Part shown: piece after piece, positions 1,565-28,948 of the stretch | Numbering within the stretch: position 1 is the first letter of the stretch | Layout of the letters: each line of letters opens with the position of its first letter | Assembly (NCBI GenBank): GCA_964508365.1 | Contig: CAZDTP010000019.1 | Coordinates: forward strand, 1-63,660 | Source: an uncultured archaeon | GTDB lineage: Archaea > Asgardarchaeota > Lokiarchaeia > Sigyniarchaeales > SOKP01 | Direction: 5' to 3' | Length of the DNA stretch: 63,660 nt | Translations under genes and position numbers: made by a program | Notes under the pieces: model-generated | Database searches by the model: none | The model's input: the letters and a program-made list of their open reading frames with translations, nothing else | Told to the model about the DNA's origin: nothing

Positions 1565-3007
1565 TTAATTTAGCAAATTTAAATCTTTTTTAGATTTCAA
1601 TATAAAACTCCTTAATTCTTTTAGAGCAACTATATCCCCTTTTTCTACGGTTTTACTTTTATCTTCAATAGTTACGATCACTAAACCTTTAGTTCCAAAT
1701 GTATCCACAATTTTAGAAAACGGAGGTTCCAACTTTCGACCGATTATTTTTTTTGCTCCCTCAATACTTTGGGCTAGACCGCGACAAACGACCCCTTGGG
1801 GGTGCTCTGAATTTTGAACGAATCCTTTTTTCAATTTGTATTTATATAAAATAGGTGGTTTATGGAGAATTTTAATCAATTCAGCAGCCCCAAGTATCCT
1901 TAAAGTTGTTGGTGGAAGATCGAATCTGCTAATCAATAGTGTTGATCTTTCTTTATTAAAGAAGACCTTCTCATTTAACCATAGGTAGGCATTATAATTT
2001 TTTAATTCTCCAGTTCTCTCTAATTGAATCTTATTTTGGTTATCTTCATAATATGGAAATAAATATCCCGTTAATGTGAACATACCTATTGTTACATGAA
2101 CTTGAGTACCAAAATGGGTAACATGTTTAAATAGTTTATTCTGATTCACTCGAACTTCGACTAAATCGCCTAACTCGAACGAATTCTTATTATCTGTAGC
2201 ATAACAACCACGGTATACTTTTTTAATATCTAATCCCTTTAAATTAATTCCAACCCTATCTCCTGCTTTAGCAGATCCAACTTCCTGATGAAAAGTTTGA
2301 ATAGACTTCACCCTACCTGATGTGTTAACTGGTATAACATCTAAATTCTGATTAATATCCAATTTCCCTTTTAATATTGTCCCCGTTATTATCGCTCCTC
2401 GTCCCTTTATTGAAAAATGATGATCTATTGGGATTATTACGCTACCTTCATAGTCCCTGTTAATGTTTAATCTCTTGATTTTCTCTAAAATCCCTAATTT
2501 TAAATCCTCAAATCCACTCTGTTCTTTAGCTGAAACTGTATAAATGGGTATTTCTGAGCCATAAGAAGTAGATTTAAAAAAATCTCTTATTTTTTCAACT
2601 TCACTATCAATATCTCCCTTGAATAGATCAGCTTTATTTAGTATAACGATAACATCTTTTATGTTGAGTGAATCAATCATTATAAGATGTTCTCCAGTTT
2701 GAATCTGAGGTCCCTTATTGATGTCAATTACTATTAAAGCACAATCTATTATTTCTACTGAAGCTGCGGATATTTTAATTAGATCGGCGTGTCCTGGTCC
2801 ATCAACTAAAGTTATTAAATAATCGTCTAGAATGAAACTGGTAAATCCCAGGTCTATAGTAATTCCCCTCTCTTTACTCTGTGGATGTGCATCAATTCCT
2901 GCAGTTGAAATTATTTCACTTAGCACAGAAGCGATCGCAGTTTTACCACTATCTATGTGCCCAAATAAACCTAAATGAATAGGCACTTTCTTCTCAATTT
3001 CTAACAT
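1565..3007 (-). CDS. selB: Selenocysteine-specific translation elongation factor SelB/eEFSec-like
   Basis: GHIDSGKT, RGITIDLGF, DGPGH and NKAD GTPase motifs; IPIDHHFSIKGRGAIITGT domain II; tRNA-Sec and SepSecS lie nearby. Confidence 0.93.
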   Translation of the reverse strand: MLEIEKKVPIHLGLFGHIDSGKTAIASVLSEIISTAGIDAHPQSKERGITIDLGFTSFILDDYLITLVDGPGHADLIKISAASVEIIDCALIVIDINKGPQIQTGEHLIMIDSLNIKDVIVILNKADLFKGDIDSEVEKIRDFFKSTSYGSEIPIYTVSAKEQSGFEDLKLGILEKIKRLNINRDYEGSVIIPIDHHFSIKGRGAIITGTILKGKLDINQNLDVIPVNTSGRVKSIQTFHQEVGSAKAGDRVGINLKGLDIKKVYRGCYATDNKNSFELGDLVEVRVNQNKLFKHVTHFGTQVHVTIGMFTLTGYLFPYYEDNQNKIQLERTGELKNYNAYLWLNEKVFFNKERSTLLISRFDLPPTTLRILGAAELIKILHKPPILYKYKLKKGFVQNSEHPQGVVCRGLAQSIEGAKKIIGRKLEPPFSKIVDTFGTKGLVIVTIEDKSKTVEKGDIVALKELRSFILKSKKDLNLLN

Positions 3008-6363: not shown

Positions 6364-7068
6364 ATGGATTCTTTAATTTTCAACGAAACTCTCATCAAGA
6401 GTAAACTTTTCAGTTGCGATTCACCTTCACGTATTTCACTAAATGACGATTTTTTTACAAGGTCGGCAGTGCTTTTTTCAATAATTCCTTACGAAAACAA
6501 ACCTTACGACTTAATTCTCATTCATCGTTCGAACTTGGGAACAAGGCATAGGGGTGAAATGTCATTTCCTGGAGGAAAATTTGAAAAAAATAAGGATAAA
6601 ACATTAAAGGATACCGCACTACGAGAAACTGGAGAAGAAATTGGAGTATCTAAGGAAGATATAAAAATTATTGGGTGTCTTGATGACTTCCCAACTATGA
6701 CCAAGTATATTATTACTCCTTTTGTGGCGGTTATTGATAAAAATCAACAGCTAATAAGGGAAGAAAGAGAAGTCCAAAGAATATTGAAAATTCCTATAGA
6801 CTTTTTCACTAGTAAAACTCAATTTCGAGAACAAGCTATTGATGTTGATGGTAATAAATTTCCAGTTTTTTATTTTAATTACTTTGATAAAGACAATGAT
6901 CAAAAATATACTGTATGGGGAGCAACTGCCTATATGATCGTGACTTTTATTGAAACCATATACGGTTTTTCGCTATCGAGCTTAGGACTTAAACGATTTA
7001 AGCTAGAAAAGATCAAAGATTTGAAAGAGTACATAAAATACAGGGACAGGATAACTAAAAAGTTTTAA
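6364..7068 (+). CDS. Nudix hydrolase, CoA pyrophosphatase-like (paralog 1)
   Basis: RHRGEMSFPGGK...TALRETGEEIG Nudix box; VWGATA motif. Confidence 0.9.
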   Translation: MDSLIFNETLIKSKLFSCDSPSRISLNDDFFTRSAVLFSIIPYENKPYDLILIHRSNLGTRHRGEMSFPGGKFEKNKDKTLKDTALRETGEEIGVSKEDIKIIGCLDDFPTMTKYIITPFVAVIDKNQQLIREEREVQRILKIPIDFFTSKTQFREQAIDVDGNKFPVFYFNYFDKDNDQKYTVWGATAYMIVTFIETIYGFSLSSLGLKRFKLEKIKDLKEYIKYRDRITKKF

Positions 7069-7101: not shown

Positions 7102-7770
7102 ATGGATTTTATTTTTAACGAAAAACTAATCAGAACGAAATTGAAAGATTTTGATTCTCTTGATCGCCTTGTTCTTTCTCACAATAATTTTATTAATTCC
7201 GCCGTCGTATTTCTAATTATTCCCTACAACGATAAACCATACGATTTAGTTTTAATTCGAAGAACTAAAAGCACTACTGATAAACACTCTGGTGAGATGT
7301 CGTTTCCTGGAGGAAAATTCGATCAAGCATTAGACACCTCTTATTTAGATACAGCCCTACGAGAACTAGACGAAGAACTTGGAGTCCCCCGAACCAAGGT
7401 TAGTATTTTAGGTAGCATTGACGACCACCTTACACCTAAAGGTTTTATTATAACTGCCTTTGTTGCTTTTATTAGTCAGGACACAAAAATGGTAAAACAG
7501 GATAGCGAAGTAAAGGAAATAGTTAAAATCCCTATAACATTTTTTGCGGATAAAAAGAAATTCAGGGAAAGAACATATAAACTCAAAGACGACCTAATTG
7601 GTGTCGGTAAATATAACTATTTCTCTTCAGATAGTAAAAAATATGTCATATTTGGAGCGACTTCTCATATAATTGTAAATTTTATAGATACCGTCTATAA
7701 TCTGGGTCTAATGACGCCTGGTTGTCGTCGAATTAATTGCGAGGATATTAAAGACAGAATAATACCCTAG
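7102..7770 (+). CDS. Nudix hydrolase, CoA pyrophosphatase-like (paralog 2)
   Basis: KHSGEMSFPGGK...TALRELDEELG; IFGATS motif. Confidence 0.9.
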   Translation: MDFIFNEKLIRTKLKDFDSLDRLVLSHNNFINSAVVFLIIPYNDKPYDLVLIRRTKSTTDKHSGEMSFPGGKFDQALDTSYLDTALRELDEELGVPRTKVSILGSIDDHLTPKGFIITAFVAFISQDTKMVKQDSEVKEIVKIPITFFADKKKFRERTYKLKDDLIGVGKYNYFSSDSKKYVIFGATSHIIVNFIDTVYNLGLMTPGCRRINCEDIKDRIIP

Positions 7771-8043
7771 TAATTGAAATATTGTTATTAAAAACTTCAT
7801 GGTATCATGTTTTAGTAAGGTAGAACGCCTATTTACAAGTTTGGGGTTTGAAAGATTTCAATATGAGGTAATTCAACTTTTTAAAAGCTAATTGATCTAT
7901 TTTTTTCTACTGTAACTACTTTTTTATTTTTTCACTAATCTAAATTTAAAGAGCTTTTAATCAACAAAAATCAGATAATTAAATAATAATCGAAAAATTC
8001 AATTAAAATAACTAATAATATACTTTAAAGAAAATTTTTTTAT

Positions 8044-8194
8044 GGCCCCCGGCGGTCGGGGTGGTCCCAGACGCTGGGCTTCAAAACCTTTATAACAGCT
8101 ATAAATGAAGAAACCCAGTTATCCTGCGGAGGGATAGGGGTTCGATACGGACAAAGGCTTCCTTTTTCCAAGAAAATCCCCCTGGGGGCCGCCA
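8044..8194 (+). tRNA. selC: tRNA-Sec (anticodon UCA) with two introns: 8085-8112 (37/38, 28 nt) and ~8147-8176 (T-loop 59/60, 30 nt)
   Basis: 9-bp acceptor GGCCCCCGG/CTGGGGGCC; long D-stem GTCGGGG/CCCAGAC; anticodon arm CTGGG-CTTCAAA-CCCAG; long variable arm; 4-bp T-stem GGGG/CCCC; ends GCCA; mature length 93 nt; 24 nt upstream of SepSecS. Confidence 0.92.
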
Positions 8195-8218
8195 TATTTG
8201 CATTTTAAGTAAAAATCC

Positions 8219-9595
8219 GTGATAATAGTGGTTGATTTTAGTAAAATTATTGATTATTTCAAGAGTACATCTATTCCTCAAAATATGTTGAACAGAGGCC
8301 AATTAGTCTTCAACAATTTTTTGAAACCTATACAAAACTTGTTTGAACAAAAAAATGTCCCTCAAAAACCTTGGAGCGAAAGTCAAATCGAATATTTACT
8401 CCAAACTCTTTCTAATATGGACACTGATAAAGATGATAAAGCGTCTCGTGTAGGAGAGCGTGAAGCTCGAATCGCATCGAGTTTACACTTGAAAACTTCG
8501 GCAGGATTCTGTCATGGTGTAGGGCGAAGTGGTTTCTTAACAGCCCCACAACCTAAAGCTCCTGGTGGATCGATAATGTACGAGCTTAGTAATTATTTAG
8601 CTCTTAATTTTCTAAAAAAATTTGGTTTACCAAATGTTAAGAAGGCTATAGTAGTCCCACTGTGTACGGGTATGTCTTTATCGTTATGCTTAGGAGCTCT
8701 CCGTCCAGATTGGAATAATGACAAACTGCTCAACAAGAGAACTGTTATTGTGCCGCAGATTGATCATAACGCACTTATCAAAGCGTTTAGTCTAATTGGT
8801 GCTAAAATGAAAATTGTAAAGGGCAAAAAGTTTGGAGATGCTGTGAGAATCCCAATTGAGGATATTAAAACCAGTTTAGACGACGATTGCTTTGCGGTGT
8901 TATCGTTGACGAGTTTTTTCCCTCCTCGAGAACACGATAATATAAAAGAGATTAGTAAATTTGCCAAAAAACATGATTTAGTTCATATTGTCATCAATGC
9001 TTATGGCGTACAGAGCCCTGAGTGGATGAACTTAATCCGAGTTGGTCTTGATGCAGGCCGAATAGACGCAATTATTCAATCAACAGATAAGAATTTCTTG
9101 ACACCTATAGGTGGTGCTGTTATAGCATCTCCATCCGAAGAGGTTATAACCAAAATAAGCCAAGCATACGCCGGCCGCGCCTCAGCGACCCCAATTGTGA
9201 ACTTTCTGATTTCAATGTTATCTTTAGGCATCGAGGGTTATCAGCAATTATTAGATGAACAACAAAAAAATCGAAAGCTATTAGAAGAAAAATTAAAGAT
9301 TGTTGCTGAAAAAAATAAGGAAAAAATATTTGAAGTTTTTAATCCTGTAGCTGTTGCCATGTCTTTAAATAATTTAAAAAAAGAGCAACTATATGCGCTT
9401 GGTGGTGCTCTCTATAACTTAAGGGTTACCGGACCGCGAGTATATAACCCCGAGGAAAAGATATTTGGTACTTGTTGTGCAGAATTTACTACGCCATATA
9501 TAGTTTTAAACTCAGCAATAGGAATTAACTCTAACGATATCATTTCAGCTGTAGAGAGATTCGAAAAAGCTTATGATCAAATAACTTCCAGTTGA
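8219..9595 (+). CDS. spcS: O-phosphoseryl-tRNA(Sec) selenium transferase (SepSecS)
   Basis: VGEREARI, HGVGRSG...PQPKAPG and the PLP-lysine motif QSTDKNFLTPIGG. Confidence 0.95.
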   Translation: MIIVVDFSKIIDYFKSTSIPQNMLNRGQLVFNNFLKPIQNLFEQKNVPQKPWSESQIEYLLQTLSNMDTDKDDKASRVGEREARIASSLHLKTSAGFCHGVGRSGFLTAPQPKAPGGSIMYELSNYLALNFLKKFGLPNVKKAIVVPLCTGMSLSLCLGALRPDWNNDKLLNKRTVIVPQIDHNALIKAFSLIGAKMKIVKGKKFGDAVRIPIEDIKTSLDDDCFAVLSLTSFFPPREHDNIKEISKFAKKHDLVHIVINAYGVQSPEWMNLIRVGLDAGRIDAIIQSTDKNFLTPIGGAVIASPSEEVITKISQAYAGRASATPIVNFLISMLSLGIEGYQQLLDEQQKNRKLLEEKLKIVAEKNKEKIFEVFNPVAVAMSLNNLKKEQLYALGGALYNLRVTGPRVYNPEEKIFGTCCAEFTTPYIVLNSAIGINSNDIISAVERFEKAYDQITSS

Positions 9596-20321: not shown

Positions 20322-20472
20322 TGGGCCTTCGGGGATTTGAACCCCGGCTCTCAGGCGTCTACTGACACAGTCAATTATTACTTTATTTGTCTGACTGCGG
20401 GTCACTTATAAGACCTGCGCTTGTTGGCCAAGCTTACTCTAAATGCTGTTAACCAAACTAAGCAAAAGGCCC
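20322..20472 (-). tRNA. tRNA-Ile (anticodon UAU) with two introns: 20423-20449 (D-loop 21/22, 27 nt) and 49 nt in the anticodon loop (20358-20406 if 37/38; 20357-20405 if 38/39)
   Basis: Acceptor GGGCCTT/AAGGCCC + A73; T-arm CGGGG-TTCAAAT-CCCCG; short variable loop; anticodon arm CAGGT-CT-TAT-A..GCCTG; D-loop intron has a BHB with helix TGGT/GCCA; mature length 75 nt. U9 is atypical. Confidence 0.8.
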
Positions 20473-28848: not shown

Positions 28849-28948
28849 GCAGATATAGCCAAGCGGTACGGCGCTGGCTTGGAGTGGTAACCTTAACCAG
28901 AAAGCCAGTGTGTGAAAACACTCGAGGGTTCGAGTCCCTCTGTCTGCG
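28849..28948 (+). tRNA. tRNA-Ser (GGA) with an 18-nt intron at 37/38 (28885-28902)
   Basis: Acceptor GCAGATA/TGTCTGC + G73; anticodon arm CTGGC-TTGGAG|A-GCCAG; BHB helix TTGG/CCAG; long variable arm; GAGGG-TTCGAGT-CCCTC. Confidence 0.92.

Follow-up and report, generated by a model that had tools for sequence, protein, structure and literature searches.

Which tRNA would serve selenocysteine (Sec) in an archaeon that carries the Sec machinery, when standard finders report no tRNA-Sec in the very contig that holds several of the Sec-pathway genes? The question is raised by a 63,660-nt contig (CAZDTP010000019.1 of assembly GCA_964508365.1), here called the window, from a metagenome-assembled genome (MAG) of a Promethearchaeota (Lokiarchaeia) archaeon of salt-marsh sediment, which comprises 149 contigs and is estimated to be 100% complete. 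An earlier inspection of the letters alone, referred to below as the sequence-only reading, had proposed a tRNA-Sec of the 9/4 fold at positions 8044-8194, interrupted by a 28-nt intron at 37/38 and by a 30-nt insert in the T-loop. Our analysis leads to the same gene: this 151-nt stretch is very probably the sole functional tRNA-Sec(UCA) gene of the archaeon, and its two introns are spliced out. We infer the splicing from comparative and structural evidence, and with it the cleavage, ligation, expression and aminoacylation of the tRNA.

With both introns set aside, the three exons (Table 1) fold into a cloverleaf of the 9/4 type. The acceptor stem counts 9 bp (8044-8052 with 8182-8190, including one G.U pair) and the T stem 4 bp (GGGG/CCCC), and all 13 of these pairs form. 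The D stem, preceded by a 2-nt linker, has six of its seven pairs formed and closes on a 4-nt loop, which is the extended D stem with short loop characteristic of archaeal tRNA-Sec; the orthologues likewise have a 7-bp D stem. The anticodon stem is 6 bp long, its loop reads CUUCAAA once intron 1 is removed, and the anticodon UCA lies at 8081-8083. The variable arm consists of a 6-bp stem and a 5-nt loop, and the discriminator base is G73.

Removal of both inserts in silico leads ARAGORN to call a 93-nt tRNA-SeC(tca), and removal of the T-loop insert alone leads it, at a lower threshold, to call a tRNA-SeC with a 28-nt intron. From the intact window, ARAGORN called no tRNA anywhere, and the sole match of an Rfam scan was an ordinary tRNA at 28849-28948, so that the expectation of the sequence-only reading that standard finders would miss the gene was borne out. 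A permissive Rfam scan of 7950-8290 returned noise only, namely SNORD37 (15.8 bits, opposite strand) and HgcG (7.8 bits). A covariance model trained exclusively on 17 intronless orthologues, which we call R1, has a single match in the window, covering 8044-8194 end to end (83.5 bits, E ~3e-17), and its alignment places two large inserted stretches directly after A37 and directly after U59. In addition, the unconstrained minimum-free-energy fold of the 151-mer (-62.3 kcal/mol, z = -2.5) regains the five cloverleaf stems, the first intron's bulge-helix-bulge (BHB) motif and the hairpin of the second; the central helix of the T-loop site is absent from it.

The exon junctions are fixed by comparison with orthologues. 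When 60 relatives were searched by BLAST with the 151-mer, 32 of the 36 other genomes of its genus yielded an orthologue, and a scan of public genomes based on SepSecS retrieved tRNA-Sec orthologues from many more MAGs of Promethearchaeota (formerly Lokiarchaeota). Almost all of these genes precede SepSecS by some tens of nucleotides. Sorted by configuration, the 56 distinct sequences comprise 17 with no insert, 6 with a D-arm insert only, 1 with a T-loop insert only, 22 with D-arm and T-loop inserts, and 10 of the window's type with inserts at 37/38 and in the T-loop, a two-intron form that is present in 10 distinct species-level genomes. After splicing, every one of the 56 gives exactly 93 nt. 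Uninterrupted orthologues read CUUCAA|ACCCAG across the first site and GGUUCGAU|UCCCC across the second, which makes them colinear with the window gene after splicing. The 36 distinct mature sequences show compensatory changes in every stem (for instance C-G to U-A at acceptor pair 6, G-C to C-G or A-U in the T stem, and G-C to A-U in the anticodon stem), with 7 of 1152 cells unpaired, six of these at the fourth D-stem pair. In the acceptor stem such changes affect pairs 6, 8 and 9 across orthologues, and in the T stem pairs 2 and 3. For the 17 intronless sequences the paired fraction of cells is 99.8%, and 7 pairs have changed on both sides, a result that none of 500 shuffles reached and of which slid controls fell far short. 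Within the window's own clade covariation is weak because the exons are nearly invariant, and support for the fold thus comes from the wider orthologue set. The T-loop UUCGAUU (after removal of any insert) and an encoded 3' GCCA, i.e., the discriminator G plus CCA, are invariant in all 36 mature sequences (orthologues L018-L110).

Each of the two inserts has the geometry of an archaeal intron. At the first, C32-C35 (8079-8082, CUUC) pairs with GAAG (8107-8110), the bulges AA|A and AA|A occupy 8083-8085 and 8111-8113, and the anticodon stem flanks the motif, which is the strict, textbook BHB that had been described from the letters. The strict motif recurs in 10 of 10 distinct clade members (CUUC/GAAG with 4/4 pairs, 3-nt bulges AA|N and NN|A), among which 20 of the 28 intron columns are variable and GAAG and the following A are invariant. 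Its inner hairpin (8089-8094 with 8100-8105) is AT-rich, and the intron is missing from 46 of the 56 distinct orthologues. At the second site, U54U55C56 (8141-8143) pairs with GAA (8172-8174), and the fourth position is the mismatch G57.A8171. AU|A (8145-8147) and AA|U (8175-8177) form the bulges, the T stem serves as the outer helix, and a 9-bp inner hairpin is formed by 8149-8157 with 8161-8169. Excision restores the T-loop, giving GGGG-TTCGATT-CCCC at the positions and in the relaxed form that the sequence-only reading had assigned. Among 33 distinct T-loop introns the geometry is right in all, and the central helix has 4/4 pairs in 11 (UUCG/CGAA or UGAA) and 3/4 in 22; the inner hairpin is preserved across them via compensatory changes. 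The invariant positions of both introns in the window's clade include those on which the motif depends, which in intron 2 are GG.A, AAG, the CC-AAGAA stretch and the final base. Overall, the clade has variable columns at 6 of 93 exon positions (2 of 34 in exon 2) and at 31 of 58 intron positions (Fisher p about 9e-11, which is indicative, the sequences being those of related kin).

The rest of the genome fits a tRNA-Sec of this kind. An intronless tRNA-Sec elsewhere, which the sequence-only reading had named as the possible expressed copy, has no candidate: the best RF01852 score in the genome, 29.5 bits, falls on ordinary tRNAs, and neither short BLAST nor fuzzy searches with the exons detected a further copy of any tRNA-Sec exon. 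As the sequence-only reading had noted for Lokiarchaeia, the host carries Sec genes. SepSecS begins about 25-34 nt after the end of tRNA-Sec (its start is probably the GTG at 8228, judging from orthologues), in an order kept in about 60 related genomes, and the archaeal SelB/EFsec gene is located ~5 kb upstream of tRNA-Sec on the opposite strand. EFsec, tRNA-Sec and SepSecS, three genes of the Sec pathway, lie inside 8 kb. Elsewhere in the genome are a PSTK-like gene, whose 154 bits fall short of the curated cut-off, and selD, encoding selenophosphate synthetase, with one in-frame TGA; the selD product is probably itself a selenoprotein. The enzymes for intron removal are encoded as well: an RtcB (559 bits) and a pair of EndA paralogues, each of about 200 aa. 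The first EndA is alpha-like, with chain B of 3P1Z, from the Aeropyrum pernix heterotetramer, as its best PDB match (1.4e-33), and has a stretch aligned to the K44 region of that chain, which we take to be the crenarchaea-specific loop tied to broad substrate range. The second is diverged and lacks the His at the aligned catalytic position. Crenarchaeal two-paralogue EndA cuts relaxed motifs at non-canonical sites.

Table 1. Coordinates of the tRNA-Sec gene, its parts and other features named in the text (positions in the window unless a contig is given).
Feature	Position	Strand	Description
tRNA-Sec(UCA) gene	8044-8194	+	three exons, two introns
tRNA-Sec exon 1	8044-8084	+	5' acceptor strand, 7-bp D stem and UGGU loop, 5' anticodon-stem strand, C32-A37
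tRNA-Sec intron 1	8085-8112	+	28 nt, canonical 37/38 position, strict BHB motif
tRNA-Sec exon 2	8113-8146	+	A38, 3' anticodon-stem strand, variable arm, GGGG of T stem, T-loop 54-59 (UUCGAU)
tRNA-Sec intron 2	8147-8176	+	30 nt, T-loop 59/60, relaxed BHB motif
tRNA-Sec exon 3	8177-8194	+	U60, CCCC of T stem, 3' acceptor strand, G73 (8191), encoded CCA (8192-8194)
SepSecS	8219-9595	+	O-phosphoseryl-tRNA(Sec) selenium transferase; Pfam PF05889, 1.2e-113; TIGR03531, 476.8 bits, above cut-off
Archaeal SelB/EFsec	1565-3007	-	Sec-specific elongation factor; TIGR00475, 237 bits; Pfam aSelB_III; PDB 4AC9 (SelB), 1.8e-86, full length
NUDIX-domain gene	6364-7068	+	first of two in tandem
NUDIX-domain gene	7102-7770	+	second of two in tandem
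tRNA-Ile(UAU)	20322-20472	-	called after deletion of 27-nt and 49-nt stretches
Ordinary tRNA	28849-28948	+	Rfam, 47.9 bits, 100 nt
selD	C6:91537-92388	-	selenophosphate synthetase; one in-frame TGA

Since a single tRNA-Sec copy is present in a genome estimated as complete, and the Sec machinery has been retained, Sec decoding appears to depend on both splicing events, in line with what the sequence-only reading had concluded. The following route may be proposed. Transcription would yield a precursor, 151 nt or longer, that folds into a 9/4 cloverleaf with two BHB motifs. EndA, of the crenarchaeal two-paralogue (alpha-beta)2 type, would cut at 8084|8085, 8112|8113, 8146|8147 and 8176|8177, and RtcB would ligate the three exons into a 93-nt tRNA already bearing CCA. 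The spliced tRNA-Sec would then be charged with serine and phosphorylated by PSTK, the SepSecS of the adjacent gene would turn the phosphoseryl-tRNA into Sec-tRNA, and aSelB/EFsec would bring the latter to UGA codons.

The sequence-only reading had gone one step further and regarded the two splicing events as a possible control point. If the splicing of one or both introns were a regulated, rate-limiting step, it would tune the supply of Sec-tRNA, all of which has to pass two splicing events in a single-copy gene, and the relaxed T-loop motif might be cut more slowly. However, interrupted tRNA genes are the norm here. Genome-wide, ARAGORN reports 29 tRNAs, of which 17 have an intron, and Rfam finds 27, many of them about 100 nt long. 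An archaeon usually has around 45 tRNAs, and with such low counts many tRNA genes of this genome are probably too interrupted for detection. The tRNA-Ile(UAU) of the window, for instance, was missed by ARAGORN in the intact region and was called as tRNA-Ile(tat) after two stretches had been deleted (Table 1). The ordinary tRNA that Rfam did find in the window was called by ARAGORN, in intron mode, as a tRNA-Ser(gga) with a short intron. Most tRNA genes in the genome thus seem interrupted, and double interruption would not be specific to Sec here. Moreover, close relatives with the same Sec machinery have zero, one or two introns in tRNA-Sec, so that the introns look dispensable and rapidly gained and lost. 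A regulatory role for the splicing of this tRNA is unsupported and, in our judgment, improbable.

Several observations weigh against a functional gene that is spliced twice. RF01852, the Rfam model of tRNA-Sec (gathering score 47 bits), is broken by the two inserts and gave no match to the genomic sequence with E relaxed to 10; it scores intronless orthologues (five scanned) at 61-64 bits. The fourth pair of the D stem, G.A in the window, is mismatched (G.A or A.A) throughout the window's clade. Intron 1 has a weak inner helix, which some clade members do not keep. The T-loop motif is relaxed, with 3/4 central pairs plus G.A (UUCG/AGAA in the window's clade), and relaxed BHB motifs occur by chance at many boundaries (preprint 10.64898/2026.10.13.758758). 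The intron call here rests on colinearity with intronless orthologues and not on the motif. Finally, of the sequencing runs retrieved with the region, 23 are DNA (for the most part metagenomes of salt marsh and sediment) and one is a metatranscriptome. DNA contigs alone cover the locus; the RNA run gave one 35-nt piece with 5 mismatches at 8225-8259, which lies outside tRNA-Sec and carries no information on splicing.

Two of these points, the silence of the standard finders and the G.A in the D stem, are what one would expect of a decaying pseudogene, i.e., a former tRNA-Sec broken by insertions that are not removed. However, the exons are almost invariant while the intron interiors drift, the inserts sit at exact BHB geometry with their GAAG and GAA strands conserved, and 10 distinct species-level genomes share the layout. 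With the Sec machinery and a TGA-containing selD retained and no alternative tRNA-Sec present, decay is very unlikely.

Just as unlikely, in our view, is a gene in which only the 37/38 intron is spliced and the T-loop insert is retained as an expansion of the mature tRNA. The G.A in the central helix and the loss of that helix from the minimum-free-energy fold would suit such a tRNA. On the other hand, UUCGAUU is invariant in 36 of 36 mature sequences once the insert is removed, a perfect 4-bp helix forms at the same site in 11 of 33 distinct T-loop introns, and close relatives lack the insert altogether. Thirty nucleotides at 59/60 would disrupt the elbow between T-loop and D-loop, and the genome has the type of EndA that cuts relaxed motifs according to established crenarchaeal work. 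An assembly or binning artefact is scarcely credible: the MAG is fragmented into 149 contigs and related strains of other configurations occur in the same samples, but the two-intron gene recurs in assemblies of different studies with divergent intron sequences, and independent contigs span the locus, with a separate metagenome contig covering 8038-8333.

A gene of two spliced introns thus remains the preferred reading, and metagenome contigs also bear on the relatives that live beside its carrier. DNA contigs of the same salt-marsh metagenomes run from 8146 straight into UCCCCUCGAGGGCCGCCA or UCCGCUCGAGGGCCGCCA, skipping intron 2, and therefore indicate that relatives without the T-loop intron co-occur with the window's organism. 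One DNA run also has a joint of 649 nt at 8146, and loose ends occur at the same place; a reading of these as spliced RNA was rejected, since they come from the co-occurring relatives.

To describe how introns are distributed, R1 was run on an even draw of 151 Asgard genomes, of which 57 gave a match. Family f12 has intronless matches of 91-92 nt in 21 genomes. In the window's own family (f1), 12 genomes have an intronless match of 93 nt, 4 have one intron (117-125 nt) and 7 have two (151-157 nt). Family f21 has one intron in 3 genomes (122-124 nt), at the same T-loop site in the one that was aligned (L145). The survey of Asgard tRNA-Sec introns that the sequence-only reading had put forward thus gives zero to two introns within the window's family. 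Another genus of that family (genome G191, L136:1501-1617, minus strand) carries a 24-nt intron at 37/38 only, with the motif CUUC/GAAG and bulges AA|G and AA|A, and lacks the T-loop intron, so that no fewer than two lineages of the family have an intron at 37/38.

The D-arm intron, 29-34 nt long, interrupts the 5' strand of the D stem at ~15/16 in tRNA-Sec numbering (carriers are L027-L030, L044, L046, L047, L062-L068, L071 and others). Its helix is GUCG/CGAU in 25 of 28 distinct sequences and GUUG/CAAU in one more (L071), so that 26 of 28 pair fully. In L089 and L110 the D arm holds an intron of 32 nt that is unrelated to it and lies shifted by one base, with the helix GGUU/AACC. One family therefore shows six intron configurations at four sites (14/15 and 15/16 in the D arm, 37/38 in the anticodon loop and 59/60 in the T-loop).

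These configurations were laid on a protein tree of SepSecS (66 rows, quick IQ-TREE, unrooted), which is a gene tree and not a species tree. The 37/38 intron requires one change on it and marks a single, well-supported clade (9 rows, SH-aLRT 99). The minimum is 13 changes for the D-arm insert and 10 for the T-loop insert. Near-identical SepSecS sequences go with differing tRNA-Sec configurations, e.g., L084/L085, L068/L098 and L097/L105/L088. The nearest relatives of the window's clade have D-arm and T-loop inserts or the D-arm insert only, and this clade may have lost the D-arm intron and gained the 37/38 intron, a direction that the unrooted SepSecS tree does not fix.

Two sources for the introns were considered. 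Copying from elsewhere in the genome was rejected, since matches are limited to 16-nt AT-rich stretches and neither intron has a second copy. Descent of the 37/38 intron from the D-arm intron of the sister clade by relocation is unsupported, as a comparison by eye shows no evident similarity. Genome G180 has an identical one-intron tRNA-Sec at the ends of two contigs (C33:11-133 and C165:59-181), probably through an assembly break or a duplication at the locus.

That the tRNA-Sec locus of this family is a hot spot of recent intron gain and loss, and that its splicing step or steps could gate the supply of Sec-tRNA, is a joint proposition to which we attach little probability. If both ideas were true, the locus would provide a natural allelic series for testing how archaeal tRNA introns arrive and whether recoding is under their control.

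Two further features lie upstream. The tandem NUDIX-domain genes of Table 1 directly precede tRNA-Sec, and a TATA-like TAATATA occurs ~25 nt upstream of it in a uniformly AT-rich region, for which we make no promoter claim.

In practical terms, Sec-using Lokiarchaeia can be mis-scored as lacking tRNA-Sec. Because ARAGORN and Rfam/Infernal are blind to a gene such as this one, surveys of Sec in Asgard archaea need intron-aware or synteny-aware searches, for example directly upstream of SepSecS. A single-copy orthologous locus with zero, one or two introns in close species is also a clean system for timing intron gain and loss, and co-variation of exon and intron is visible at it, as in the D-arm helix GUCG/CGAU versus GUUG/CAAU. 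The finding leaves the knowledge of Sec decoding and of archaeal intron removal unchanged, and its use is that of an annotation and of a model locus for turnover.

Outside the Asgard archaea, there is a likeness to tRNAs of Thermoproteales, which have up to three BHB introns each, T-loop sites such as 59/60, relaxed motifs and a heterotetrameric EndA. The multiple-intron tRNAs of this order were reportedly described by Sugahara et al. in 2008 and by Marck and Grosjean in 2003. To our knowledge, Thermoproteales do not use selenocysteine, and the lineage is unrelated.

A tRNA-Sec interrupted in the T-loop has been known since 2016, when Mariotti et al. described a Lokiarchaeota gene whose T-loop holds a 31-nt intron and whose 7-bp D stem closes on a 4-nt loop (PMC4989117). 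Santesmasses et al. in 2017 and a review in 2022 gave it as the only archaeal tRNA-Sec with an intron (PMC5330540, PMC9499178). The window gene shares with it the 9/4 fold, the anticodon UCA, G73, the 7-bp D stem with 4-nt loop and the long variable arm (PMC4989117, PMC5330540), as well as a T-loop intron of about 30 nt at the published position. In both, EFsec lies on the same contig and opposite strand, about 5-6 kb away (PMC4989117). Unlike the 2016 gene, that of the window adds an intron at 37/38, has a T-loop intron of 30 instead of 31 nt and is directly followed by SepSecS, which was on a separate contig in that work (PMC4989117). It also encodes CCA, whereas the 2022 review stated that archaeal tRNA-Sec genes do not (PMC9499178).

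Multi-intron tRNAs are likewise established in Asgard archaea. Valentin-Alvarado et al. (2024) reported that 92-95% of tRNA genes bear introns in Atabeyarchaeia and Freyarchaeia (PMC11291895). Their Supplementary Data 4 gives a tRNA-SeC with three introns in both Atabeyarchaeia genomes and with one in Freyarchaeia, on the basis of Secmarker only and with positions absent. A preprint of October 2026 showed that Asgard tRNAs have gained introns repeatedly, and described hidden D-arm introns along with two EndA paralogues (10.64898/2026.10.13.758758). The window gene resembles these tRNAs in its several short introns at canonical and non-canonical sites (PMC11291895; 10.64898/2026.10.13.758758), in escaping tRNAscan-type tools and in the two EndA paralogues of its genome. 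Unlike the tRNA-SeC of Atabeyarchaeia, whose introns the text of PMC11291895 leaves undiscussed, it belongs to a Lokiarchaeia host, and its intron positions, motifs and series of presence and absence are resolved here. As for eukaryotes, the tRNA-Sec of Daphnia pulex (PMC5330540) is similarly interrupted one base 3' of the anticodon (37/38). Unlike that of the window, however, it is handled by the Sen complex and a ruler mechanism and has a single intron, the T-loop being uninterrupted, and a 9/4 fold whose D stem counts 6 bp.

The sequence-only reading could not say whether a two-intron form had been reported. The T-loop intron (PMC4989117) and a tRNA-SeC with three introns (PMC11291895) do have precedents, whereas no description of the combination of 37/38 and 59/60, or of a polymorphic tRNA-Sec series, was found among open-access papers and bioRxiv preprints. 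Novelty is accordingly limited, interrupted tRNA-Sec and multi-intron tRNAs being already known in Asgard archaea. What is new in comparison with these systems is the combination of a 37/38 and a T-loop intron, confined to one clade, together with the fast intron turnover at the tRNA-Sec locus.

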